From assembly GCA_964533575.1 (NCBI GenBank), contig CAZHMG010000006.1, positions 51-64,050 on the forward strand: a DNA stretch of 64,000 nt, read 5' to 3'. The notes beneath the pieces are model-generated. The model did no database searches and was not told the DNA's origin. It was given only the letters and a program-made list of their open reading frames with translations. Position numbers and translations under genes: made by a program. Position 1 is the stretch's first letter, and each line of letters opens with the position of its first letter. Source of the stretch: an uncultured Thermoleophilia bacterium (GTDB taxonomy: Bacteria > Actinomycetota > Thermoleophilia > UBA2241). Positions 1,579 through 51,580 of this stretch are shown here, in pieces.

Positions 1579-4500
1579 ATGCTGCTGATGGATGACAAGG
1601 CGAACACCCCGGGCCGGGACATCGAGGTCCTCTGCTTCGACTGGGACAGCATCAGGCGAGAGGATGGAGGAGAGGATGTCGCGGAGGCGCGCAGCCTCAT
1701 TCAGCGGCTGTGCGCCGTGGGACTCGACATCGCCCTCCTGAGCGATTCCGACGTCGCTGCGGTCGACGACGAGCTCCGTGCGCGGGCGGACGTCGAGGGC
1801 CGCCTCTTCCTCTTCCTGTCGGGGGGTTCGGAAGTCTATGTGGTGGGGCCACAGGGCCCGCGGTTGCTCGCCAGACGGCAGGCGAGCGAGCAGGAGGAGG
1901 CCCAGATGGCGTCAGCTGCGGCGGCGTTCCGTGATGAGCTGGCAGGACGAGGACTTGACGTCTCTCTGACCTACGACGGCTTCAACCGCTGGCGAATCAC
2001 GCTTCCTCCCGGCGCGAAGGACGATGACGGTGAGGAGAAGTTGGTCCACCTCGCCCGGGAGCAGTTGCATGCAGCCGGATTACGGGACCGGGGGGTGAGA
2101 GTTGACGGGTATCAGCTGTATCTGGGCCACACCGATAGACGCAGCAGCCTGCGCGAGGTGATCCGGCATCTGATCCTCGAGCGCCGGCGCGAACTGTCCG
2201 ATCTTCTCGTCATCGGTGACGGTGTCGAGGAACTCGTCCGGCACGTCGCGCCTCGCGGCAGCCGCGGACGGCCGCTCGTGCTGGCCAATGAGCCGGGCGG
2301 ATGGGGCTTGGTGCTGCCGCTTCTCCGCGACCAGCTCGCGCGGCGGACGTCGGCCGCGTACGAGCGCTTCCCCGAGCCGGCACCAGACCCCGCTTGGCGT
2401 TACGAGGTGGTAGGGTTCGATCCATTTCGCGAGCGTGAGTCGGAGACGCTGCTGACCGTGTCCAACGGCGAGTCGGGGACTCGCGGGTCACTCGAAGAGG
2501 GATCTGGGGTCTCCACTCCCGGCACCTTCGTTGCCGGCGTCTTTGGCGACGGCACGGGAGAAATCCGTTTCCGCCAGCCCGTGCCGGCCGCGGACTGGGT
2601 CGGGTTGCGGCTCCTTGTCGGCGGCCTGCCGCTGTCTCTGGCGAACGGGGAGCTGATCGAGCATCGCCGCGTCCTCGACATGCGCCATGGAGTCGTTCAT
2701 CGAATCTGGCGGCAGCGTGACGGGATGGGACGTATCGTGACGGTACGCACAGCTCGCTTCGCGTCTCTCGCCGACCGTCAGATGCTCGCCCTTCGTGCGG
2801 AGGCGACAGCGGATAACTACTCCGGTCGCCTCATCTGGCAGTCCGCGGTGGGAATCTCGCATGCTGGCGGCCCTGTCAAAGAGATGGAGATCCATGACAT
2901 GCCGGATTCACGCCTGCTGGCGCGTACCATGGGCCGTAATGGCGGCGGGCATGTGCTCGCGCTGACCACGCAGCCCGCGTTCGGTTCGCCGATCGTGCGC
3001 TACGTGGATCAGGGCCGCGACGTCATCGGCGGCCTGCTGGAGCCCGGCGATCCCGCGACCGTCGATCGGCTCGCAGCCCTGGTGTCAGCGCGCACCCGCG
3101 TGCCGTCCGCCGCCGCAGTTGATCGAGTCCTCGAGAGGGCGATGCGTCTCGGCTACGACGAACTGCTGCGCCGCCATCGCGCCGCTTGGGAAGATCGATG
3201 GCGTGACGCCGATCTGGTGGTCGAGGGCGATGACGACGATCAGCAGGCCCTTCGATTCAGCATCTTCCACATGATCAGCACGGCCCACCCCACGAATGAC
3301 AGCGTCTCGGTGGGTGCGCGAGGCCTGAGCGGCATGTCCTACTTCCTGCATGTCTTTTGGGATACCGAGATCTTCGTGCTGCCATTCTTCATCTACACCC
3401 ATCCGCAGACAGCGCGAACGCTCCTTGCCTACCGCTTCCGAAACCTCGCGGGCGCTCGGGAGAAGGCGCGCCGTTTTGGTCACCGCGGCGCGCTCTACCC
3501 TTGGGAGTCTGCCGACAAGGGGGTTGAGACGACGCCGCCATACGGGCTCGGCCCCGGTGGGGAAGTGGTGCCCATCCTCTCCGGCCTCATGGAACATCAC
3601 ATTTCGGCTGACGTGGCCTGGGCTGTCTGGGAATACTGGAAGGCAACCGCGGACGACGCCTTCATGACGGGCATGGGCGTCGAAATGCTTCTCGAGACGG
3701 CGCGTTTCTGGGCCTCTCGATCCGTCCCCGACGACGAGGGCAGATACCATATCCGCCTCGTGGTCGGGCCTGACGAGTACCATGAGGCCATCGACGACAA
3801 CGCGTACACCAACGTTCTCGCGCGCTGGAACATCAGACGTGCTCTGGAGGCGTGGGCCTGGTTGCGGGAGGCCGACTCCGGCTACGCCGACGAGCTGTGG
3901 GAGCGCTTGGGTCTGAGTATGGGCGAGTTCGGGGAATGGAGCGCCGTGGCCGAGGGCCTCGTCGACGGCTTCGATCCGCAAACGCTCCTCTACGAGCAGT
4001 TCGAGGGTTTCTACGAGATGGATGATGTACCGCTCGAGAAGTTGCGGCCGCGCCCCATGGCTGCGGACATGCTGCTCGGGCGCGAGGCGACACTGCGTTC
4101 GAAAGTGATCAAACAGGCGGATGTGGTGATGCTCTCCCACGTCCTCTCAGACGAGATCGATGATGCGGTCACGGCCGCCAATTACGACTACTACGAGCCG
4201 ATGACCGCCCACGGCAGCTCCCTGAGTCCGGGAATGCACGCAGCCGTTGCGGCACGTCTCGGGCGAGTCGAGGATGCCGTCGACGACTTCAAGATGGCGG
4301 CGGCGATCGATCTCGGCGATACCATGGGCAACGCCGCGCGCGGCCTTCACCTTGCGACGATGGGCAGTCTGTGGCAGGCCGCGGTCATGGGGTTCGCAGG
4401 CATTCAGCGGCGAGACGAAGTTCTCCTCGTCGATCCCCACCTCCCGCCATCGTGGCGCGTGGTCAGGGTGCCGTTCCTGTTCCGCGGCGCCCGCCTTTCC

Positions 4501-40849: not shown

Positions 40850-40949
40850 GCGAAGGCCAGGAGCGTCATGATGCCGTCGCGGTTGCGGCGATCGGACGTC
40901 CGGCTCAGCGTCTCGGGTGTCGACGCGCCGACCCTCGCCCGGCCCTCGA

Positions 40950-40978
40950 TTGACCGCCGCATGCCACGGTTGTAGCCT
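40950..40978 (+). promoter_or_regulatory. Promoter of the cob operon
   Basis: TTGACC-17 nt-TAGCCT directly upstream of the riboswitch. Confidence 0.65.
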
Positions 40979-40982
40979 TCAT

Positions 40983-41122
40983 GCGTTGTCTCTCAGCCGC
41001 TGGGAAGCCGGTGCAATGCCGGCGCTGCCCCGCAACTGTAGGCGCGGACGACCGCCGCACTCAGCCACTGTCATCGGACGGGAAGGCGCGGCCAGTAGGA
41101 CGAAGCGCGAGCCAGGACACCA
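40983..41122 (+). ncRNA. Cobalamin (B12) riboswitch
   Basis: GGGAA-GCCGGTGCAATGCCGGC-GCTGCCCCGCAACTGTA ... GCCACTG ... GGGAAGGCG ... AGCCAGGACACC. It sits upstream of corrinoid genes. Confidence 0.92.
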
Positions 41123-41165
41123 TGGCTGGGGGAGCATCGCGACAGAGCCTCGAGGGAGGGCTGCG

Positions 41166-41906
41166 GTGGGATTCGAGGATCGACTCATCCTCGTCACGGG
41201 CGGGGCCCGTAGCGGCAAGAGCAGGTATGCCGAACGGCTCACCGCCATGGTGGCGGAAGGGGCACAGGGTTCCCGCGACGGGGTGATAGAGCCATGCCGC
41301 GTCGTCTACCTGGCGACGTCCGAAACGAACGACGAGGAGATGGCGGCGCGCGTCGCCGCTCATCGTGCGTCCCGCCCTGCAGGCTGGACAACTGTCGAAT
41401 GCCCGGTCGAGGTGCCGGCAGCGCTGCGCGCCGAGACGGCCACACGGGGTCCTGCCGTCTTCCTGCTCGACTGCGTAACCTTCTGGGTGAGCAATCTCAT
41501 CTTCGCCGGTGGCGACCTTGGCGGGACGGACCCTGGCGAGGACTTCAACTACGACAAGTCCCTGCTGACGGCGCGGCAGGAGACGGAAGCGGCCAGCCGG
41601 GTGGAGCACGCCGTCGACGATCTGCTTGCGGCGCTCTCCGGCACCGGATCCACGCTGATCGCGGTGTCCAATGAAGTCGGCCTCGGCGTCGTCCCGGAGT
41701 ATCCTCTCGCGCGTCTCTATCGAGACCAGCTGGGCTGGGTGAACCAGCGCCTGGCACTCGAGGCCGAGCATGTCTACTTTCTCGTTTCTGGCCTGCCGCT
41801 CGACGTGAAACTGCTGGCGGCGCCGCTTTCCTCGCCGTCGCGGACGGCCGTCCGGCTCCGTTCGACCGAATCCCTCCCCCGACCCTCGTCCAAGGAGACC
41901 CAGTGA
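41166..41906 (+). CDS. cobU: Adenosylcobinamide kinase/adenosylcobinamide-phosphate guanylyltransferase
   Basis: LVTGGARSGKS.YAE, YLATS, EM..RV..HR, LLDCVT, VSNEVGLG, RDQLG.VNQ. GTG 41166 after GAGGGAGG. Confidence 0.93.
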   Translation: MGFEDRLILVTGGARSGKSRYAERLTAMVAEGAQGSRDGVIEPCRVVYLATSETNDEEMAARVAAHRASRPAGWTTVECPVEVPAALRAETATRGPAVFLLDCVTFWVSNLIFAGGDLGGTDPGEDFNYDKSLLTARQETEAASRVEHAVDDLLAALSGTGSTLIAVSNEVGLGVVPEYPLARLYRDQLGWVNQRLALEAEHVYFLVSGLPLDVKLLAAPLSSPSRTAVRLRSTESLPRPSSKETQ

Positions 41907-42988
41907 TCTCGCCGCTTGAGCACACCATCAGTCAGATCCGGCCGCTGGATGCCGAGGCAATGCAAGCGGCGGAGGCGCGACAGATGCAGCTCACCAAGCC
42001 CCCGAGGGCGCTTGGGCGTCTGGAATCGCTCTCCATCCGCCTTGCCGGCATCAAGGCGGTGCCGCTACCGAGAATCGAACACAAGGCCATCGCCGTCATG
42101 GCCGCGGACCACGGCGTCACCGCGGAAGGCGTGAGCGCTTTCCCGCCCGAGGTGACCCCCGCGATGGTGCTGAACTTCGCTGCCGGCGGGGCCGCCATCA
42201 ACGTGATCGGGCGCCACGTGGGTGCGCGCGTGATCGTCACGGATGTCGGCGTGAACGCCGATCTGTCCGGCACGCGCGGGGTTCGTCACAGGAAGATCCG
42301 TATGGGGACAGCCAACATGGCCGATGGTCCGGCGATGACGCGCGACGAGTGTCTCGCGGCAATCGCCGTCGGCATGGAGCTCGTCGAGGAGGAGGTGGCT
42401 GAGGGCCTCGACATCATCGCGACGGGTGAGATGGGCATCGGGAATACAACCGCAGCCTCCGCCGTGATCGCTGCTCTCACCAGCGCGCCAGTCGCACTGG
42501 TGACAGGACGCGGAACCGGCATCAGCGCGGAGGCATTGCCCGCGAAGGTGGCCGTCATCGAGCGGGCGCTCGCCGTGAATCAGCCAGATGCCGGCGACCC
42601 GGTCGACGTGCTCGCCAAGGTCGGCGGGCTGGAGATCGCCGCCATGACGGGCGTGTTCCTCGGTGGTGCCGCCCATCGAACGCCGGTCATCATGGACGGC
42701 TTCATCAGCGCGGCCGCCGCATTGGCGGCCGTCCGCCTTTGTCACGAATGCGTCGACTACATTCTCCCCAGCCACGTGAGCATCGAGATCGGGCATCAGG
42801 TAGTGCTTGACGAACTTGGCCTGACGCCCCTCTTCGATCTGCAGATGCGCCTCGGCGAGGGCACCGGCGCAGCCCTCTCGATGAGCATCATCGAGGCCGC
42901 GGCCCGCATCCTTGCCGATATGGCGACGTTTGAAAGCGCCGGAGTGGCAGGCGATCCGAACGCGGTCCACGCAGAACTCCGCAGCTGA
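41903..42988 (+). CDS. cobT: Nicotinate-nucleotide--dimethylbenzimidazole phosphoribosyltransferase
   Basis: LTKP..ALGRLE, AADHGV, GGAAIN, GEMGIGNTT, GRGTG, DGFIS, MRLGEGTGA. Confidence 0.95.
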   Translation: MISPLEHTISQIRPLDAEAMQAAEARQMQLTKPPRALGRLESLSIRLAGIKAVPLPRIEHKAIAVMAADHGVTAEGVSAFPPEVTPAMVLNFAAGGAAINVIGRHVGARVIVTDVGVNADLSGTRGVRHRKIRMGTANMADGPAMTRDECLAAIAVGMELVEEEVAEGLDIIATGEMGIGNTTAASAVIAALTSAPVALVTGRGTGISAEALPAKVAVIERALAVNQPDAGDPVDVLAKVGGLEIAAMTGVFLGGAAHRTPVIMDGFISAAAALAAVRLCHECVDYILPSHVSIEIGHQVVLDELGLTPLFDLQMRLGEGTGAALSMSIIEAAARILADMATFESAGVAGDPNAVHAELRS

Positions 42989-43006
42989 AGCGCCCTGCCG
43001 CGGTCA

Positions 43007-43858
43007 ATGGAGGACGGCGCCGAGAATATGCGACCAGACGGGCTCGACAGCGGAGCCGCGCCCGCGCATGAGTGGGCCGGCGGCCGCGTCAGACACGCCA
43101 CCCTCGCGGTTACGTTTCTGACCGGCATTCCGCTGCGGCAGCGAGGCGAGTCGCGTCCTGCCGACCTGTGGCGCAGCATGGGCTGGTACCCGCTCGTGGG
43201 CCTGATGCTCGGCGCCGCGGCATGGGGAGCCTACTCGATCCTCATCGTGATTCTGCCGGGCCTGGTGGCCGCCGCCACCGTGGTTCTTCTGCTCGAGGTC
43301 GTCACGCGCGGCCTGCACATGGATGGGCTCATGGACACGGCGGACGGTCTGTTCAGCGGTGCACCCCGTGATCGCGCTCTGGAAATCATGAAGGACAGCC
43401 ACGCCGGCGCCATGGGCGTTCTCGCTGCGATCCTGGTCGTCACGCTGAAGATCACAGCCTTGGGCTCGCTGGCCGGTCCGGACGCCGCGCTTCCCCTGAT
43501 CGCGGGGTGGGCGATTGCGCGAGCGCTGCCCCCGCTGGACGTGTACATTTGGCCGTATGCGAGGCCGGCTGGCACTGGTGAGGCTTTCACCAGGGAGCGG
43601 ACACTGGGCCCGGTCGCGCTGGCAGGTGGGTTCGTCGCGCTCGCGCTCGTTCTGGCCGGGGTCCTGGCCTCGGGGATCGGTGGCGCGGGCAGCTGGTGGG
43701 GCGGGATTGTCATGGCGGGGGCGTGTCTTGCGGTGGTCCTCGGCGTGCATGTCGTCGTCGCGAAGCGCCTCGGTGGCTTGACTGGCGACGTCTACGGCAT
43801 GGGCGTCACGCTGGCCGAGACGATCGCGCTCGTTGTCGGTTGCGCTCTGGCGCAGTGA
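43007..43858 (+). CDS. cobS: Adenosylcobinamide-GDP ribazoletransferase (cobalamin synthase)
   Basis: FLT.IP, TRGLHMDGLMDTADG, IMKDS.AGAMG, GGLTGDVYG. The start may be ATG 43028. Confidence 0.93.
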   Translation: MEDGAENMRPDGLDSGAAPAHEWAGGRVRHATLAVTFLTGIPLRQRGESRPADLWRSMGWYPLVGLMLGAAAWGAYSILIVILPGLVAAATVVLLLEVVTRGLHMDGLMDTADGLFSGAPRDRALEIMKDSHAGAMGVLAAILVVTLKITALGSLAGPDAALPLIAGWAIARALPPLDVYIWPYARPAGTGEAFTRERTLGPVALAGGFVALALVLAGVLASGIGGAGSWWGGIVMAGACLAVVLGVHVVVAKRLGGLTGDVYGMGVTLAETIALVVGCALAQ

Positions 43859-43875
43859 CGTCAGGAAGGGACGGG

Positions 43876-44607
43876 ATGAGACTCTATCTTGTGAGGCACG
43901 GAGCCTCGACGGGAAACACTCCGGGGAATCTTCTCGGGCATGCGCCTCATCCGCTCACTCCCGTCGGTATGGTCCAAGCCCGCGCCGTGGCCGCGCGTTT
44001 GGCGCCGCTGGGACCGATGCCGGTCTATTGCAGCGACCTTCTGCGGGCGCGCCAGACCGCGGAGTGCATCGCCGCCGTGTGGCCGTCCGCGTTGCCGGGA
44101 GAAGCGGACGGCGTCGCTGTTCTGCCCTTGGACGACCCAAGACTTCGGGAGCTCGACCTCGGCCGTTTCGAGGGACGCTCGTGGGACGAGTTCCTCGGCG
44201 ACGAGGAGTTGAATGCGGCGATGATCGCCGACCCGCTTCACACTGCGTTGCCTGGCGGCGAGTCACTGGCGCAGATGAAGGAGCGCGTCCTCGCAGCGAT
44301 CGACGACATCGTCGCCCGTCACGCCGCTGAGGCCGGCACACCTCCGCCCTCGACGCGGGCTTCGGTTCCGCTCGGTGCTCTCACTCCGGCCGGGTCTGAT
44401 GTCGCGGTCTGTGTCGTCGCTCACGACGGCCCCCTCAGAGTCATCCTGAACCACTTCCTTGGGGTGCTGCCCGAGAAGTGGTGGGCGCTGACGACAACGC
44501 ACGGAGGCCTTTCGATGCTCGAGTGGTCGAACGGCTGGGTGAACGTCCGCTTCGTGAACGGGACCAGCCACCTTGCAGGTGTCGGCGGGAAGACCAGCTC
44601 GTCATGA
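43876..44607 (+). CDS. cobC: Histidine phosphatase, probable alpha-ribazole phosphatase
   Basis: LYLVRHG, SDLLRARQTA, LRELDLG.FEG, PGGES, VAHDG. Located inside the cob operon. Confidence 0.8.
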   Translation: MRLYLVRHGASTGNTPGNLLGHAPHPLTPVGMVQARAVAARLAPLGPMPVYCSDLLRARQTAECIAAVWPSALPGEADGVAVLPLDDPRLRELDLGRFEGRSWDEFLGDEELNAAMIADPLHTALPGGESLAQMKERVLAAIDDIVARHAAEAGTPPPSTRASVPLGALTPAGSDVAVCVVAHDGPLRVILNHFLGVLPEKWWALTTTHGGLSMLEWSNGWVNVRFVNGTSHLAGVGGKTSSS

Positions 44608-45551
44608 TGCTCGCGCCGTACGATTGGCCGATGGCGCTTGCGATGGTGCTGCTCGCAGGCGTGCTCGACGTCGCCTTTGGCGAACCGCCGGCCCGTCTTC
44701 ATCCCGTGGTCTGGCTGGGGCGGCTGATCGGCGCCATCGAAGCGCGGCGGCCGCACTGCAGGCCGCGCCAGGAGCTTGCCTACGGCGTCCTCATCGTGGT
44801 CGTCGTGGTTTCCGTCTCCGTCGCCGCGGGCCTGTTGCTCGTCGTCGTGATGAGGTGGCTGCCGTGGTTCTTTGCGCTACCGCTGGGCGCCGTCATTCTC
44901 AAGACCACCTTCTCCCTCCGAGGGCTGGTCGCGGCGGCCAACGAGGTACGGCGCGCCCTCGTCGGCGACCTCGACGCTGCTCGTGCCAGCCTTGTCGCGC
45001 TGGTGAGCCGGGACCGCGAGCTGGACTCCCCAGGCATCGTCTCTGCCACTGTCGAATCTCTTGCGGAGAACCTCGTCGACAGCGTCGTCTCGCCGTTGCT
45101 GTACTTCGCGCTGTTCGGTCTGCCGGGAGCGCTTGCTTACCGCGCCGTCAACACGATGGACGCGATGATCGGCTACCGGGGCGAGTACGAGTTCGTCGGC
45201 AAAGCGGCAGCGCGTTCGGATGACGTCCTCAACTGGATCCCGGCGCGCCTCACGGGGCTGCTGCTCGTGGCCTTGGCCTCGGTGCGTGGCACGGCGCGGA
45301 TCGCATGGACAACACTGCGCAGCCAGCGGCATCTCTCCGACAGCCCGAACAAGCTCTGGACGATTGCCCCGATGGCAGGCGCCCTGCGGGTGCGGCTGTG
45401 TCGCCCCGGATCGTATGCGGTCGGTCAACCCGTTCGTCCCCTCACCACAGCCGTCATCGGCGAGGCGGCTGCCTTGGTCTGGGCTGGCGGCGGGATCGTC
45501 ATCAGCGCCGCCGCCGCGCTCTCCGCCTTCGTCGCTTGGGCAGTGTGGTGA
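44604..45551 (+). CDS. cbiB: Adenosylcobinamide-phosphate synthase
   Basis: D..FGEPP..LHPVVWLG, ARASL..LVSRD, ESLAEN..D, YRAVNTMDAMIGY, DD.LNWIPARL, SPN. Confidence 0.93.
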   Translation: MMLAPYDWPMALAMVLLAGVLDVAFGEPPARLHPVVWLGRLIGAIEARRPHCRPRQELAYGVLIVVVVVSVSVAAGLLLVVVMRWLPWFFALPLGAVILKTTFSLRGLVAAANEVRRALVGDLDAARASLVALVSRDRELDSPGIVSATVESLAENLVDSVVSPLLYFALFGLPGALAYRAVNTMDAMIGYRGEYEFVGKAAARSDDVLNWIPARLTGLLLVALASVRGTARIAWTTLRSQRHLSDSPNKLWTIAPMAGALRVRLCRPGSYAVGQPVRPLTTAVIGEAAALVWAGGGIVISAAAALSAFVAWAVW

Positions 45552-45554
45552 TCG

Positions 45555-46637
45555 GTGCGCAGAGTCGCTGCTGCGGTGCACGGCGCCGTCGATCCGCAAG
45601 CGCTGCTCTCCGAGGGCGTGAGCCCCGAGGACATCATTGATTTCAGCTCCAATCAGGCCCCCGCCGGTATCGCCGCGGAGGTCGCGAGGGCCGTGCGGGC
45701 CGCCAGGTTCGACGCCTACCCGGATCCCCGAGCCTTCGACTTCTGCAGGGCGGCGGCTGCCCGTCACGGCGTGGGCGAGAGTTGTGTGGTGGCAGGCAAC
45801 GGTACGACGGAGCTGATTCGGCTCATTGCACAGCTCACACTCGGACCCGGCGATGTCGCAATGTCGCTGGCGCCTTCGTTCGGCGAGTACGTGGTCGCGA
45901 CGGCGCTCACGGGCGCTCGCCTGTCCGAAGTGCGACTCGTGAGCACTGGTGCCGGCGACGGCTTTCACTACGAAAGCGGCGCCGTCGCGGCGGCGCTAGA
46001 GGAGATGGCGCCGCCTCTCTGCTGGATCTGCTCCCCAAACAACCCCACCGGCGCCCTGGTGTCTCCCGCGGAGATCGTCTCTCTCGTCCGCGGGCATCCC
46101 GGAACGCTGTTCGTGCTCGACGAAGCGTACTGCGACCTGCTGGCGGAACCGCAGTGGTCAACGGAGCTCCTCGGCGGCGGCAATCTCGTCGTGCTCCGGT
46201 CGATGACCAAGGTCTGGGGTCTCGCGGGTCTACGCCTCGGGTACGCTCTCGCCCACGAAGAGGCGGCTGCGGCGCTGCGCGCCGCAGCTCCGCCTTGGAG
46301 CGTGAATGCGTGCGCTCAAGCCGCCGGCGTGGCCTGCTTCCGAGAAGCTGGACATTACCGGCGCAGCATGGACCTCTTGCTAAGCGAGCGCGATCGCATG
46401 ACAGGTGCGCTACGGCGGTCAGGCTGGATCGTTGAGCCGTCCCAAGCCGGCTTCTTCCTCGTGAGGGTGGGAGACGCCATGGCGACGAGGCGACGCCTGC
46501 TCCAGCACGGGCTCCTGCTGAGGGATTGCGCCTCGTTCGGCCTGCCTGACTGTCTGCGGCTCAGTCCTCGCGGTCCTGGCGATAACGACCGCCTCCTCGC
46601 CGCCTTCGCCACGCTGCACCCGGCCACGTACCACTGA
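45555..46637 (+). CDS. cobD: L-threonine-O-3-phosphate decarboxylase (PLP, HisC-like)
   Basis: VHGA, DFSSN, YPD, GNGTTELI, CSPNNPTG, DEAY, LRSMTK.WGLAGLRLGY. Located in the cob operon. Confidence 0.82.
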   Translation: MRRVAAAVHGAVDPQALLSEGVSPEDIIDFSSNQAPAGIAAEVARAVRAARFDAYPDPRAFDFCRAAAARHGVGESCVVAGNGTTELIRLIAQLTLGPGDVAMSLAPSFGEYVVATALTGARLSEVRLVSTGAGDGFHYESGAVAAALEEMAPPLCWICSPNNPTGALVSPAEIVSLVRGHPGTLFVLDEAYCDLLAEPQWSTELLGGGNLVVLRSMTKVWGLAGLRLGYALAHEEAAAALRAAAPPWSVNACAQAAGVACFREAGHYRRSMDLLLSERDRMTGALRRSGWIVEPSQAGFFLVRVGDAMATRRRLLQHGLLLRDCASFGLPDCLRLSPRGPGDNDRLLAAFATLHPATYH

Positions 46638-46694: not shown

Positions 46695-46724
46695 TTGACG
46701 CTCAGCTGTTCGGGTTGATAGTCT
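46695..46724 (+). promoter_or_regulatory. Promoter of the fur-DUF71-btu operon
   Basis: TTGACG-18 nt-TAGTCT with an extended TGn motif. Confidence 0.6.
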
Positions 46725-46734
46725 CTCTCAAAGA

Positions 46735-46755
46735 GAATGAGAAACGTTCTCATTC
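46735..46755. promoter_or_regulatory. Fur-box-like operator
   Basis: Perfect palindrome GAATGAGAA-ACG-TTCTCATTC between the promoter and the fur start. It resembles the AATGATAATCATTATCATT Fur-box pattern. Confidence 0.75.
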
Positions 46756-46773
46756 CGAGAAGGAAGGCCGGAT

Positions 46774-47211
46774 GTGAGCGGAGTGATGCCGCAGGATATC
46801 GAGGAACTGTTCCGCTGCAAGGGCATCCCGTTCACCCGGCAGCGTCACTTGATCTGGGAGTACTTCGCCGCCGGCGATCGGGCGGCTACGATCGCCGAGG
46901 CGGCAGAGGCTCTGCGCGACTCCGATGTCGGTCAAGCCACTGTCTACCGTACCGTGACCCTTCTCTCAGACCTTGGTCTGCTGGCCCGAGTTCAGGATCG
47001 CGGCGGGCAAATCTGCTACACCGCGCCGCCCATCGGCCACAGCCACCCACTCGTCTGCGGGATCTGCCGTCGCGTTGTTCGTTTCGACGGCGACGGCGAT
47101 GTCGCGGCACTGGAAGAGCATCTGTCCGCAACGACGGGCTTCTCCATCTATGGCCACCATCTCGAGGTGTACGGCATCTGCCCTGACTGTCGCGAAGCGA
47201 ACGAGCGATGA
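46774..47211 (+). CDS. Fur-family transcriptional regulator (atypical metal sites)
   Basis: T.QR..I, VGQATVYRT..LL, HSHPLVCGIC, GHHLEVYGICPDC. Confidence 0.9.
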   Translation: MSGVMPQDIEELFRCKGIPFTRQRHLIWEYFAAGDRAATIAEAAEALRDSDVGQATVYRTVTLLSDLGLLARVQDRGGQICYTAPPIGHSHPLVCGICRRVVRFDGDGDVAALEEHLSATTGFSIYGHHLEVYGICPDCREANER

Positions 47212-47912
47212 CGGAAGGGGAGCTGAAGGGCAGACGATTCTTCTGTTCGTGGAGCGGCGGTAAGGACGCGTGTCTCGCGCTGCATCGGGCCGTTGCCGCC
47301 GCGGGCAGGCCTGTCGCTCTCCTGTGCATGCTGCAGGAGGACGGCGTGTCGAGCCGCGGTCACGGCCTGCCGCTGAGCGTCCTTGAAGCCCAGGCGGCGG
47401 CACTCGGGCTTCCGCTCATGACGAGGGCGACGAGCTGGGCTGAGTACGAACGACACTTCCTCGATGCCGTGCGGGAGCTTCGCGCCCAAGGCGTTGAAGC
47501 CGGCGTCTTCGGTGACATCGACCTGCAGGAGCATCGCGACTGGGTGGAGGCTGTGTGTGCCGAGGTGGGACTGTCCTGCCATCTGCCGTTGTGGCATGAG
47601 CCGCGGCGGCGGCTCGTGGAGGAACTCATCAGCTCCGGCGTATCCGCCACCGTCGTCGCTGTCGATGCCTCCAGGCTCGGCGAAGAGTTCCTTGGCCGAA
47701 CCGTCGACTCGGCGCTCGTCGCCGACCTTGTCGCCTCCGGCGCAGACGTCTGCGGCGAGGAAGGCGAGTATCACACCGTGGTGACGACCGCGCCTCTCTT
47801 TCGAGCGCCTGTTTCTCTGCGCTGGCATGGCCACGAGCAGCGCGACGGTCATTGGGTCCTGAGATTTGATTCCGTTCATTCAACAGATCGTCGAGGGGGT
47901 TCCGATTCATGA
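47208..47912 (+). CDS. DUF71/diphthine--ammonia ligase-like PP-loop ATP pyrophosphatase
   Basis: SWSGGKDA, SRGHG, QA.ALGLP, VFGDID, PLW, FLGR, D.CGEEGEYHT.V. Confidence 0.88.
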   Translation: MTEGELKGRRFFCSWSGGKDACLALHRAVAAAGRPVALLCMLQEDGVSSRGHGLPLSVLEAQAAALGLPLMTRATSWAEYERHFLDAVRELRAQGVEAGVFGDIDLQEHRDWVEAVCAEVGLSCHLPLWHEPRRRLVEELISSGVSATVVAVDASRLGEEFLGRTVDSALVADLVASGADVCGEEGEYHTVVTTAPLFRAPVSLRWHGHEQRDGHWVLRFDSVHSTDRRGGSDS

Positions 47913-48877
47913 ACGTGCTGCGCCTGCGTCGCCCAACCATCCGCGTCATTGTCCTGCTGGCAGCTCTCGCCCTGATCGCTGCCGCCGCCCTCGTCTCAGG
48001 CGGGTGTGGGGCGAGTGATGCGGCCGGCTTGAGTCCTTCTCCATCTGCCTCATCCGGCCCCATCACCGTGACCGATGACGGGGGCGAAGAAGTCACGCTT
48101 GCGGAGCCTGCCGAGCGCGTTGTCAGCCTCGCTCCCGCCAATACGGAGATGGCATACGCCATCGGCGGCGGGGACAAGATGGTGGGCGGCACCAGCTATG
48201 ACGACTACCCGGAAGATGCGAAGGCGTTGCCCAAGATCGGCGACTTCTCCAGCCCGAGCACTGAGCGCATTGTTGCGATGAAGCCCGACCTCGTGCTGGC
48301 GGCTGGCGGCATCCAAGCCGGCCTCCGCAGCAAATTGGAGAAGCTCGGCATGGAGGTGTATGTCATAGACCCCTCCACCTACGAAGCTGCGGTAGACGAC
48401 GTCCGTGAGCTCGGGCAGCTCATGGGTGTACAGGCTCAAGCCGAACAGGTCGCGCAAGACATGGAAGCCGCGGCGGTCGACGTGACGGCGAAGGTGGGAT
48501 CTCTCGACAAGGCGGTGACGTTCGTGGAGATCTACAGCCAGCCTCTCATGACCGCTGGCTCAGATTCTTTCATCGCCGACCTCGTGGCTCGCGCAGGAGG
48601 CGTCAATCTGGGAACCTCCGCAGGCCCGGGCTACCCGACGTTCAGCAGCGAAACCCTGATCACTGAGGACCCAGCCGTCTACATCGCCGTCTCCGGGGCG
48701 CAGAGCACACCGGGGGAGATCGCCGACAGACCTGGGTACGCGGGCTTGAGCGCCGTCAAGAACGAACGCGTCTACGTTATCGAGGACAACCTCATCGCGC
48801 GGCCTGGTCCGCGGCTGGCGGAAGGTCTGCAGCAGCTCGCCCAGATGATTCATCCAGAGGCGTATCAGGCCCAGTGA
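47909..48877 (+). CDS. Cobalamin/iron-chelate ABC substrate-binding lipoprotein (BtuF-like)
   Basis: Lipobox SGGC, VTDDGG, RVVSLAPANTE, E.IVAMKPDLV, RPGPRL. Confidence 0.88.
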   Translation: MNVLRLRRPTIRVIVLLAALALIAAAALVSGGCGASDAAGLSPSPSASSGPITVTDDGGEEVTLAEPAERVVSLAPANTEMAYAIGGGDKMVGGTSYDDYPEDAKALPKIGDFSSPSTERIVAMKPDLVLAAGGIQAGLRSKLEKLGMEVYVIDPSTYEAAVDDVRELGQLMGVQAQAEQVAQDMEAAAVDVTAKVGSLDKAVTFVEIYSQPLMTAGSDSFIADLVARAGGVNLGTSAGPGYPTFSSETLITEDPAVYIAVSGAQSTPGEIADRPGYAGLSAVKNERVYVIEDNLIARPGPRLAEGLQQLAQMIHPEAYQAQ

Positions 48878-49869
48878 TCGGGCGGGCACGCATTGGGGGC
48901 GGGCTTGGCCTTGCCCTTGCGGTCCTTCTGTTTGTGGCGTGTCTGATAGCGTCACTCCTGTTCGGCCCGGCCTCGCTACCGCTCGGTGAGCTCGTCGAGC
49001 ACATCCGTACGGGGCCGGGCGCGGACACCGCGGGGTCTGTCATCTTCTGGGAGATCCGCCTGCCGCGCGTTCTGCTGGCGTTCCTGGTAGGCGCGTCACT
49101 CTCGGTGGCCGGCGTTATCCTGCAGGATCTGTTTCTGAATCCGCTCACCGACCCGTACGTCACGGGGGTGTCCTCGGGGGCGGCGCTCGGGGCCACTATC
49201 GGCATCGTCTTGAAGCTCGCGCCGCTGCCCTGGGTCACGGTGCTCGCTCTGGCCGGCGGTTTCGCGACGCTCGCCGTGGTCTGGGTGGCGGCCCGGCGCC
49301 GTGGCAGGATCGACATCTACGTCCTGCTGCTGGCTGGAGTAACCATTTCCTACCTGGTCACGGCCGCCATCAGCGTGATGATGATTCGTGCGGGCGAGGA
49401 CATGTACGCGATCGTCTACTGGCTCCTTGGAAGCTTCAGCGGGCGTACCTGGCAGGAGGTGCAGGTCGCTCTGTTCGTCCTGCCGTTCCTGGTCGTGCCG
49501 TTCTTCTTCCTTGACGAGATGGACATTCTCCTGCAGGGGGAGAAGCGGGCCCTCGAGCTGGGTGTCGAGGTCGAGCGGGCCAAGCGCATTCTGCTGGTCA
49601 CGGCGGCGGCACTCACGGCGATTGCCGTGAGCGTGTCCGGCATCATCGGCTTTGTCGGCCTCGTCGTACCTCATATCGTACGGCTCCTGGTGGGCCCGGG
49701 GCACCGCCGCCTGATTCCCATCGCCCTGCTGGGCGGCGCCGCGCTGATGGGAATCGCCGACCTGTTGTCCCGCACGATGTTTGCGCCGACAGAGGTACCG
49801 GTCGGCGTCGTCACGACGTTCGTCGGCGCGCCGCTGTTCGTCTACCTGCTGCGGAGAAGGCGGGCATGA
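48874..49869 (+). CDS. FecCD/BtuC-family permease
   Basis: IRLPRV, NPL.DPY..GVSSGA, GIIGFVGLVVPH, EVPVGVVT..GAP.F. Confidence 0.92.
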   Translation: MIGRARIGGGLGLALAVLLFVACLIASLLFGPASLPLGELVEHIRTGPGADTAGSVIFWEIRLPRVLLAFLVGASLSVAGVILQDLFLNPLTDPYVTGVSSGAALGATIGIVLKLAPLPWVTVLALAGGFATLAVVWVAARRRGRIDIYVLLLAGVTISYLVTAAISVMMIRAGEDMYAIVYWLLGSFSGRTWQEVQVALFVLPFLVVPFFFLDEMDILLQGEKRALELGVEVERAKRILLVTAAALTAIAVSVSGIIGFVGLVVPHIVRLLVGPGHRRLIPIALLGGAALMGIADLLSRTMFAPTEVPVGVVTTFVGAPLFVYLLRRRRA

Positions 49870-51104
49870 GCGGCGCACCGTCGACGGCCCTGATCTCCGT
49901 TCGTGATCTGAGCTTCGCCTACGACGCGCGTCCGGTCCTCAAGCGCGTCTCGTTCGAGGCCGAGGCGGGCGACTTCGTCGGCGTGGTCGGTCCCAACGGG
50001 AGCGGGAAGAGCACCCTGCTCGACCTGATTGACGGTGTGCTCAGACCGGCGTCGGGCCAGGTGGAGGTCGCCGGACGGCCCACGGATGCCTACAGGAGAC
50101 GCGACATGGCGCGTCAGGTCGCCCTGGTCCCACAGCATTTCGCCCTCGAGTTCGACCTCGGCGTCCGAGAAGTCGTGGAGATGGGCGCGTACTGCCGCGC
50201 CGGGGAGGGCGGTTCGCAGGACGAGGCTGAGCAGATGCTTGCGCGGCTAGGTGTGAGCGGGCTGATCGATCGCCGCTTCTCCGAGCTCTCGGGCGGCGAG
50301 AAACAACTCGTCGTCCTCGCCCAGGCCCTGATGCAGGGGGCGCCTCTGCTGCTGCTCGACGAACCCGCCTCCGCGCTCGACGTCTCCCACCAGCTACGAC
50401 TGTTCGACCTGCTCAAGAAGCTCAACGCGGACGGCCTGACGGTCGTGTGCGTGCTCCACGACCTGAACCTCGCTCTCCACTACTTCGACCGGCTGCTCGT
50501 CTTCTCTGATGGCGAGGTGGCGGCATATGGTCCTCCCGAGGTGGTGCTGCGGCCGGAGATCGTGGAGGCCGTTTACGGCATACGGGCGTTCCTGCACAGA
50601 CATGCCGGCCGCACGTATCTGACATTCTCGCCTCGCGCTCGGGGTGAGCGCCGGGGCCGGGTGCATGTCATCTGCGGGGGCGGCACCGGGTCTGGCCTGA
50701 TGCGCGACTTGGTAGACGCCGGATACGACGTATCCGCCGGCGTCCTCAACGCTCTCGATACCGATGAGGAGACAGGGCGGGAGCTAGGCTTGCCGATGGC
50801 CGTCGAAGCGCCGTTCTCGCCCATCGGCGATGAGACGCACCGCGAGAATCTGGCGCTCATCGACGCCGCGGAAGTCGTGGTCGTCGCGGCCGTTCCCGTG
50901 AGCCACGGCAACGAGCGCAATCTCGTCGCGGCCCTGCAGGCGGCCGCCGCCGGCAAGCCGGTCTGGGTCGCATCCGGCATTTTCGACAGTGACTTCACAG
51001 GGATGACCGCGAGTCTGGCGACTGCCGGCGTGCAGTTCTATGGCCTGCAGTCCGAACTGTTCTCTGCGCTGAAGAGCCGCCCGGATCAGTGCTATCCGAG
51101 CTGA
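49866..51104 (+). CDS. BtuD/FecE-type ATPase with a roughly 150 aa C-terminal extra domain
   Basis: GPNGSGKS, LSGGEKQ, LDEP...LD, LHDLN. The extension has VHVICGGG.G, SAGVL...DTD, PFSPI and GNERNL. Confidence 0.9.
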   Translation: MSGAPSTALISVRDLSFAYDARPVLKRVSFEAEAGDFVGVVGPNGSGKSTLLDLIDGVLRPASGQVEVAGRPTDAYRRRDMARQVALVPQHFALEFDLGVREVVEMGAYCRAGEGGSQDEAEQMLARLGVSGLIDRRFSELSGGEKQLVVLAQALMQGAPLLLLDEPASALDVSHQLRLFDLLKKLNADGLTVVCVLHDLNLALHYFDRLLVFSDGEVAAYGPPEVVLRPEIVEAVYGIRAFLHRHAGRTYLTFSPRARGERRGRVHVICGGGTGSGLMRDLVDAGYDVSAGVLNALDTDEETGRELGLPMAVEAPFSPIGDETHRENLALIDAAEVVVVAAVPVSHGNERNLVAALQAAAAGKPVWVASGIFDSDFTGMTASLATAGVQFYGLQSELFSALKSRPDQCYPS

Positions 51105-51142: not shown

Positions 51143-51580
51143 TCAAACCGTCATGGCGCGCAACTCCGCGGCTGCTGCGCGCGCCTGATCCGCCGATTTC
51201 GCAAACGCCCGGGCGGAGTCGCCTAGCGCCTCCGCACACTCGCGGGCGAAGTCCTCATGAAAGCGCGCGGTTTCGAGCTCGGCATCGATGAGCTGCTCGA
51301 CGGCAGTGGGCCAGTTCGTTGCCGGCTCGACTCCCAGCTTGCTCACATAGTCGCGGCCGTCCAGCGATCGCAACGGGGAATTGGCGCCGCCACGCCTGAC
51401 GGCGAGCTTCTCGACGCGATCGTCATGGGCGCACACCAGTTCCTCCAGCTTCGCCTGCCACACATCATCAGGCGCGAGCACTCCGGCTGCGGCGGCGAAG
51501 TCGGCGCAGGCGCGTTCCGCCTCGAGGGCGAAGCTGAATGCGGATGTGCAGGTGATGATCTCGGGGAACTGGCGTGCCAC
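51143..51580 (-). CDS. Hypothetical helical protein, possibly ferritin-like
   Basis: All-alpha pattern with FALEAE, AHDDR, DAELE..FH. GTG overlaps an AGGAG RBS region downstream of the SBP gene. Confidence 0.5.
   Translation of the reverse strand: MARQFPEIITCTSAFSFALEAERACADFAAAAGVLAPDDVWQAKLEELVCAHDDRVEKLAVRRGGANSPLRSLDGRDYVSKLGVEPATNWPTAVEQLIDAELETARFHEDFARECAEALGDSARAFAKSADQARAAAAELRAMTV

Follow-up and report, generated by a model that had tools for sequence, protein, structure and literature searches.

A Fur-family regulator without the canonical metal site at the head of a corrinoid-type uptake operon in Thermoleophilia

The 64,000-nt stretch of contig CAZHMG010000006.1 analyzed here (assembly GCA_964533575.1, an uncultured soil bacterium of the actinobacterial class Thermoleophilia; hereafter the window) carries a gene, named furX in this study, that encodes a Fur-family regulator devoid of the canonical regulatory metal site and stands first in an operon for corrinoid-type uptake. 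On comparative sequence grounds we consider it fairly probable that FurX is an autoregulated, operator-binding repressor, that it belongs to a lineage-specific Fur subfamily concerned with cobalt and corrinoid supply, and that it senses its signal via a histidine cluster of the site-3 type. The window derives from a metagenome-assembled genome (MAG) of 2.5 Mb with 66% G+C and a completeness of 96%. Synteny, residue invariance and operator counts are based on 80 fetched furX loci, together 966 kb. An earlier note, made from the letters of the window alone, had already singled out the gene, and its claims are considered below where evidence bears on them.

FurX has the Fur fold and lacks site 2

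The gene was characterized by Pfam, alignments, a phylogenetic tree and an AlphaFold2 model:

46774 (GTG)-47211, plus strand: furX, Fur-family regulator of 145 amino acids without site 2

FurX scored 52.5 bits with the Pfam FUR profile (PF01475; cut-off 23.1), and the match extends over 119 of the 121 profile positions. With the GTG start, the N-terminus aligns at equal length with those of the homologues. The model (predicted local distance difference test score, pLDDT, 80.4; predicted template modelling score, pTM, 0.74) adopts the Fur fold, and the best 50 PDB matches listed by a structure search were all members of the family (PerR, Zur, Fur, Mur and Nur; probability 1.00), Streptomyces coelicolor Zur (ScZur) being among the best.

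Residues were mapped with HMMER onto CjFur and Mycobacterium tuberculosis Zur (MtZur, 2O03) and with MAFFT onto Escherichia coli Fur (NC_000913), and all mappings agree. As the earlier note had read by eye, the canonical regulatory site is lost: H32/H33 are replaced by A37/A38, E81 by T83, H88 by S90, H90 by P92 and E101 by R103. The note had conceded that a proper alignment could bring the His and Glu ligands back; none of the three did so. A37 and P92 are invariant in the 80 homologues, and at the other three site-2 columns no canonical ligand occurs among the homologues shown in the alignment. The regulatory site of PerR, which consists of H37, D85, H91, H93 and D104 (Bacillus subtilis numbering), occupies the same columns as Fur site 2, and there FurX carries A, T, S, P and R instead of the PerR ligands. 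The M-site of MtZur (D62, C76, H81, H83) fares no better in the HMMER alignment with 2O03, where it corresponds to A, P, S and P.

A second set of potential ligands is kept. The histidines that the note had assigned to the second site, H87 (H89 in FurX), the exchange of D89 for histidine (H91) and H125 (H128), were borne out, and all are invariant. The claim that E108 is also kept was not: the column holds Ala112, which varies among homologues. Acidic residues are conserved close by, namely D109 (the E. coli S106 column, 100%) and E114 (the Q111 column, 94%). Compared with MtZur site 3 (H80, H82, E101, H118), FurX thus keeps the three histidines as H89, H91 and H128, while the Glu column is Ala112 with D109 and E114 flanking it. 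Both CxxC pairs are intact (C95/C98 and C136/C139), as the note had said, and zinc occupancy of these cysteines is predicted. In the 80 homologues the invariant positions include H89, H91, H128, H129, E131, D109 and the four cysteines.

None of the specialized models of the family claims FurX. It scored 45.6 on the iron Fur equivalog NF051892 (cut-off 220) and 38.1 on NF006999 (cut-off 146), 32 bits on the NCBIfam Zur model (cut-off 167), 53.6 on the best PerR equivalog (cut-off 180) and 22.9 bits on the Irr models (cut-offs 150-170).

A conserved pair of operators precedes furX

The region between the upstream genes and furX contains the following elements:

46695-46724, plus strand: promoter from a consensus scan, -35 TTGACG at 46695-46700 and -10 region GATAGT/TAGTCT at 46717-46724
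46715-46731, plus strand: operator O1 by comparison, TTGATAGTCTCTCTCAA, an imperfect inverted repeat over the -10
46735-46755, plus strand: operator O2, perfect 9-3-9 palindrome GAATGAGAAACGTTCTCATTC with the core TGAGAAACGTTCTCA at 46738-46752
46760-46767, plus strand: Shine-Dalgarno-like AAGGAAGG, read from the sequence, 6 nt before the GTG start

The perfect palindrome that the earlier note reported between promoter and start is therefore present, beginning 13 nt after a promoter-like site of the form TTGACG-16-GATAGT. The note saw O2 but missed both O1 and the cobalamin riboswitch described below. The core is a 7-1-7 repeat, TGAGAAC-n-GTTCTCA; the Fur, PerR and Zur boxes of B. subtilis are likewise of the 7-1-7 type. 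Within the window, O2 is the sole match to the 21-mer at up to 3 mismatches, with 0.01 expected. A scan of the whole 2.5-Mb genome, which the note had proposed, gave the same picture: the furX site was the only 21-mer match with at most 3 mismatches and the only perfect core.

Upstream regions of relatives were aligned on the palindrome, giving 56 distinct regions with a conserved layout: TTGACG, 17 nt, TTGATAGnTTTTCTCAA (O1, which holds the -10), 5 nt and GTTGAGAACnGTTCTCAAC (O2). In 49 of them TTGAC is at position -49/-50 relative to the O2 centre, and the O1 consensus TTGATAGnTTTTCTCAA begins 30-31 nt before that centre, again in 49/56. The window shows the same arrangement of promoter, O1 and O2. 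The core with at most one mismatch adjoins furX at a fixed position in 57 of the 80 loci, as against 3 matches elsewhere in the 966 kb, in line with the note's suggestion of autoregulation. When 16 whole genomes were scanned, 12 perfect cores were found, 10 of them directly upstream of furX; the reversed pattern, used as control, gave 0. We conclude that furX is very probably autoregulated. Taken together, the operator data are strong comparative evidence for a locally acting, autoregulated repressor, whose binding to these sites we infer.

A genome-wide FurX regulon was also considered. The host genome holds 31 core sites with one or two mismatches, compared with 10-22 in shuffled sequences, and this was judged to be no excess. 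The two perfect boxes found away from furX in the 16 genomes, one intragenic (genome G026) and one in a heliorhodopsin promoter (genome G032), were examined as FurX targets and judged to be chance occurrences, because 29 other heliorhodopsin loci lack the box and 47 Mb of sequence should contain about 0.4 such sites by chance. The box in G032, TTGAGAATGATTCTCAC (locus L095, 3805-3819, contig C2), is located downstream of the presumed promoter of the heliorhodopsin gene (3023-3790, minus strand) and ahead of its ribosome-binding site. It is probably there by chance; if FurX used light-labile adenosylcobalamin, the site would deserve a second look.

A different design was observed in a sub-group of loci (L034, L040, L041, L043, L049, L051, L052, L058, L061, L068 and L071), where a single degenerate operator, TTGATAATTTCTCTCAAC, lies upstream of furX and is fused to the -10. 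Here an ATG follows the operator within 3 nt, which suggests that these furX mRNAs are leaderless or nearly so and encode N-terminally extended proteins.

furX is the first gene of a DUF71-btuFCD operon

The earlier note had placed the Fur-family gene at the head of a corrinoid-type uptake operon, and this holds. Five genes follow one another so closely that all four junctions are 4-nt overlaps (ATGA or GTGA). The genes behind furX are:

47208-47912, plus strand: DUF71/Dph6-like PP-loop ATP pyrophosphatase of the DUF71-B12 type (Pfam PF01902, 1.8e-42), its start overlapping the furX stop (ATGA)
47909-48877, plus strand: BtuF-like substrate-binding protein (Peripla_BP_2)
48874-49869, plus strand: BtuC-like FecCD permease (FecCD, 1e-89; best NCBIfam model BtuC PRK09535, 280 bits, below cut-off)
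49866-51104, plus strand: BtuD-like ATPase of 412 amino acids (ABC_tran) with a C-terminal extension of about 150 amino acids

The BtuF-like protein matched the NCBIfam models for BtuF and for a PGF-CTERM substrate-binding protein below their cut-offs. Its PDB matches were, in order, 4m7o (an iron-binding protein, the best), the BtuF proteins of Vibrio and E. coli, and ShuT. For the ATPase the best NCBIfam model was the corrinoid ABC ATPase PRK09536 (288.8 bits, below cut-off), along which the whole protein aligns up to position 358 of 402. The C-terminal 152 amino acids (extension, 50646-51104) gave no Pfam match.

That DUF71 genes of the B12 subgroup cluster with BtuFCD and cbiB has been published (PMC3541065), and this supports a corrinoid as the substrate of the transporter. 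The window shows the same association, a PF01902 gene adjoining btuFCD-type genes, and corrinoid transport is predicted.

FurX is confined to one family and travels with cobalt and corrinoid genes

Hundreds of FurX homologues with 58-86% identity were found, almost all in Thermoleophilia MAGs. In a sample of 201 Thermoleophilia genomes, FurX occurred in 30 of the 36 genomes from the family of the host and in 1 of about 165 others; the clade is confined to a single Thermoleophilia family. A 4.7-kb contig (L054, JBLMXT010000279.1) that encodes a 76%-identical FurX behind a typical operator was binned in a MAG titled Deltaproteobacteria, probably as a result of a binning error.

The order furX-DUF71-btuF-btuC-btuD is kept in about 65 of the 80 loci, and in about 75 furX has a cobalt, corrinoid-uptake or cob-gene neighbour. 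Of the remainder, L073, L083 and L084 are short and their neighbours could not be resolved, and L054 and L085 end before an identified neighbour. Other members of the clade (58-64% identity) are in many cases an additional copy within one MAG. Some head cbiM-cbiN-cbiQ-cbiO operons for cobalt transporters of the energy-coupling factor (ECF) type, some precede cobU, and others lie beside cobO, cbiJ-cobO, cobQ or cobA-hemD, two of these being divergent from a cobalamin riboswitch. One genus of the same family (G044) has no FurX. In its place, a riboswitch and one intervening stretch are followed by cobU-T-S-D-cbiB-DUF71-btuFCD in an uninterrupted row, which indicates that FurX holds the regulatory place taken by the riboswitch in this sister lineage.

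These data bear on one alternative, that FurX is an ordinary iron Fur set over an importer for iron-siderophores or heme, with the cob neighbours being coincidental. Transporters built from Peripla_BP_2, FecCD and ABC components are often iron-regulated, the binding protein has an annotated iron-binding protein as its best PDB sequence match, and the ATPase scores 247.8 bits on a heme ATPase model with a cut-off of 261. However, all five site-2 ligands are gone, the Fur, Zur, PerR and Irr equivalog scores lie far under their cut-offs, a DUF71-B12 gene sits within the operon, cob-gene or cbiMNQO surroundings recur across the clade, and the genus without FurX has the same importer in an operon led by a B12 riboswitch. 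We regard the iron explanation as close to refuted.

The host depends on imported corrinoids and carries a riboswitch-led cob operon upstream

Two further elements precede furX in the window:

40949-41139, plus strand: cobalamin riboswitch (Rfam RF00174, 88.3 bits against a gathering score of 31.5)
41160-46637, plus strand: cobU-cobT-cobS-cobC-cbiB-cobD, nucleotide-loop assembly and cobinamide salvage, ending 136 nt before furX

The cob genes matched the Pfam and NCBIfam models CobU, DBI_PRT, CobS, His_Phos_1 (ribazole cobC), CobD_Cbib and L_thr_O3P_dcar. The riboswitch is present in a single copy in the host genome, on the same strand as furX and 5.6 kb upstream of it. In the 136-nt gap between cobD and furX, a consensus scan found no terminator, and the folding is not unusually stable (z = +0.79). 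With no terminator-like structure and a riboswitch-led operon on the same strand, dual control is possible in this window, and the furX operon may also receive read-through from the cob operon.

The earlier note had assigned control of the transporter to FurX rather than to a B12 riboswitch. For the relatives this stands, as no riboswitch was found within 7 kb in any of ten stand-alone furX operons (10/10). For the window itself it has to be modified, given the riboswitch upstream.

Corrin-ring synthesis is missing from the host. The genes cbiC, cobQ, cbiJ and cobA are absent from its genome, which has only one TP_methylase match. It encodes 15 proteins with a B12-binding domain (PF02310), for example at C124:2624-2962, C12:39835-40173 and C14:41788-42117. 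The host is a heavy user of corrinoids and has to import them. The condition is common: cbiC is missing in 24 of 31 FurX-bearing genomes and in 30 of the 37 genomes of the family sample.

The upstream riboswitch raises the possibility that FurX has no effector, or that its Cys4 site acts as a redox switch, so that it would be a constitutive autoregulatory damper, the B12 signal arriving solely by read-through. Such a role would fit the riboswitch operon ending 136 nt upstream on the same strand, with neither a terminator-like element nor a stable hairpin in the gap, and the loss of site 2, which removes the usual allosteric switch. The stand-alone operons speak against it: without a riboswitch nearby, read-through cannot be the general signal. 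Furthermore, H89, H91, H128, H129, E131 and D109 do not vary even between lineages with 40% overall divergence, and this speaks for a binding site that has been kept. An effector-free or redox-driven FurX is therefore unlikely.

FurX arose within a radiation of Zur-like regulators

FurX was placed in a tree of the family, as the earlier note had advised. References taken from databases were EcFur, EcZur, MtZur, CjFur, RlMur, BsPerR, SpPerR and B. cereus Fur; the sequences of ScZur, ScNur, BjIrr, PaFur, BsZur and MtFurA served as landmarks only. In the maximum-likelihood tree the FurX clade was monophyletic (99/97) and stood apart from the Fur, Mur, PerR, Irr and MtZur references. It is nested in a radiation of Zur-like regulators that head znuABC operons. 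These znuABC-linked relatives share with FurX the motifs GH-x-H and GH-x-LE and a two-residue deletion. They carry a Cys before helix 5, whereas every FurX has Gly108 at that position, within an acidic FDGDGD insertion. The nearest out-group members, P0130, P0131 (Marinithermus CP002630, L090 6001-6438), P0133 and P0137, head znuABC operons, and the classical ligands of the Zur M-site are missing from them as well. They are perhaps Zur proteins in which zinc is sensed at the site-3 position alone.

The host genome encodes five Fur paralogues, of which FurX is the most divergent. The others lie in genome G000 at C8:24369-25022, C1:118-687, C2:50981-51469 and C36:14257-14742. Three belong to a PerR/FurA-like group, in which two proteins have long tails at the C-terminus, and the C36 paralogue is Zur-like (HGLDHC...HGH), with residues of the D/C/H/H type and an ABC ATPase about 1 kb downstream.

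This ancestry gives weight to a reading in which FurX is a Zur variant that uses only site 3, the D-site, and ties corrinoid and cobalt import to zinc status. The FurX clade is nested among znuABC-linked regulators, ScZur is among its best structural matches, and H89, H91 and H128 correspond to the H/H/H ligands of MtZur site 3 and the ScZur D-site. On the other hand, the Cys of the znu-linked relatives has become Gly108 in every FurX, alongside the acidic DGDGD insertion, and the genome already holds the separate Zur-like paralogue C36. A similarity search of the 80 loci, which was not aimed at znu genes, returned only transporter sets of the btu/cbi type, the loci inspected in detail being of cob/cbi character; znuABC genes were seen only beside the out-group relatives. 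A zinc-responsive FurX is decidedly unlikely in our view.

A proposed mechanism and its candidate effectors

In the mechanism that we favour, a FurX dimer held together by the Cys4 zinc site would bind both inverted repeats, which lie in tandem, O1 covering the -10 and O2 the transcription start; their centres are 22 bp apart, or about two helical turns. Binding would silence the promoter of furX itself and so switch off the translationally coupled furX-DUF71-btuF-btuC-btuD operon, which would import and probably rework corrinoids. The co-repressor would be bound at a site-3-type cluster of the dimerization domain formed by H89, H91 and H128, with H129, E131, D109 and E114 near, in place of the vanished interdomain site 2, and would report sufficiency of cobalt or corrinoid. 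The Cys to Gly108 exchange would leave the site as a Fur site 3 or Zur D-site stripped of its thiolate; one would expect such a change to be unfavourable to tetrahedral zinc and better suited to N/O-rich coordination or to an axial His-cobalt bond with a corrin.

Among effectors, we place Co(II) first, still short of an even chance, a corrinoid a close second, some other effector or none third, and Zn as a poor fourth. Co(II) fits the chemistry of the Fur family and the paralogues linked to cbiMNQO; a corrinoid fits the auxotrophy of the hosts and the pattern of riboswitch replacement. The earlier note had listed Co, Ni, a corrinoid or heme ligand, or nothing at all. Comparative genomics agrees with its Co and corrinoid suggestions; nickel is disfavoured, as the paralogue-linked ECF operons carry cbiN, and a FurX that senses nothing is hard to reconcile with the invariance of the His/acidic cluster.

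A more far-reaching version would give FurX a direct corrinoid ligand, bound by the invariant HxH and HH, which lie where heme binds in Irr. It would make FurX the protein equivalent of the cobalamin riboswitch: loaded with B12, the repressor would shut down corrinoid import, cobalt import and the cob genes in one Thermoleophilia family. The genus without FurX, in which the same importer sits in a riboswitch-led operon, is a point in favour, and a free-cobalt signal is hard to rationalize when most FurX-bearing genomes are corrinoid auxotrophs. In an alignment with a provisional Irr sequence, the HxH of Irr falls on H89/H91, a lead rather than a test. We nevertheless see direct corrinoid sensing as a tentative and rather doubtful proposal.

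Several points weigh against the autoregulated cobalt/corrinoid repressor that we favour. For an importer of corrinoids in a host without corrin synthesis, control by a Co(II) sensor is physiologically hard to justify, and we know of no precedent for direct corrinoid binding in the Fur family, heme in Irr apart. The Zur-like ancestry, together with the resemblance of the remaining site to the Zur D-site, means that zinc keeps a claim. In this genome much of the control may come from the riboswitch upstream. Finally, the substrate of the transporter is deduced from its context, the NCBIfam scores being under the BtuF, BtuC and BtuD cut-offs and the heme-ATPase score of the BtuD-like protein being near its own.

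FurX and known regulators

Corrinoid and cobalt uptake are viewed as being under the control of the cobalamin riboswitch, whose typical targets are corrinoid importers and cobalt ECF importers. FurX would act on the same genes as the riboswitch regulon (RF00174; btuFCD, cbiMNQO), but through a protein repressor and DNA operators instead of an RNA element. Irr of Bradyrhizobium and Rhizobium is akin to the proposed regulator in being a member of the Fur family with a tetrapyrrole rather than a free ion as effector. Irr lacks the two CxxC pairs and is active without ligand, heme inactivating or degrading it; FurX, in contrast, has both pairs, and Irr falls in another branch of the tree.

There is also a likeness to Zur proteins with a D-site or site 3 (S. 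coelicolor Zur, 3MWM; M. tuberculosis FurB/Zur, 2O03), which are among the top matches to FurX in sequence and structure and share with it the Fur fold, the Cys4 site and the His-x-His plus His in the dimerization domain. FurX differs in lacking the M-site (D/C/H/H), in having cobalt and corrinoid rather than zinc neighbours, and in its half-site, TGAGAAC. In Mycoplasma genitalium, the Fur protein (MG_236) regulates nickel uptake and an ECF system that resembles CbiMNQO (PMC6968530). There too, a repressor of the Fur family acts on an ECF transporter akin to cobalt/nickel systems, but MG_236 is the studied Fur-family regulator of its organism and is tied to nickel, without a corrinoid setting, whereas FurX is a fifth, specialized paralogue. 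In the DUF71-B12/BtuFCD clusters, as here, the DUF71 gene adjoins btuFCD and cbiB, and among the passages of that report listed by a text search none dealt with a Fur-type regulator of these clusters (PMC3541065). A 2024 review lists Fur, Zur, PerR, Mur, Nur and Irr. The literature searched, which covers the field incompletely, contained no Fur-family regulator dedicated to cobalt or B12, the known sensors responding to Fe, Zn, Mn, Ni, peroxide or heme.

If the proposal is true, FurX would add a new class of effector to a textbook family of regulators, provide a Fur protein working with the site-3 position alone, and represent a protein repressor that has taken over the regulon of a riboswitch. 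It would also bear on how the abundant Thermoleophilia of soil and peat manage their dependence on B12 made by others. The system is tractable, with a protein of 145 amino acids, an operator pair of 41 bp and few candidate ligands.

Neighbouring open reading frames

Within the cob operon, the longest cbiB reading frame (GTG at 44478) overlaps cobC by 130 nt (44478-44607); the true start is probably later, because the Pfam match begins at residue 58. At the other end of the locus, an open reading frame of 145 amino acids (51143-51580, minus strand), without a Pfam or NCBIfam match, is convergent with btuD. As it is kept at the same position in more than 30 related loci, with 53-69% identity, it may belong functionally to the locus.

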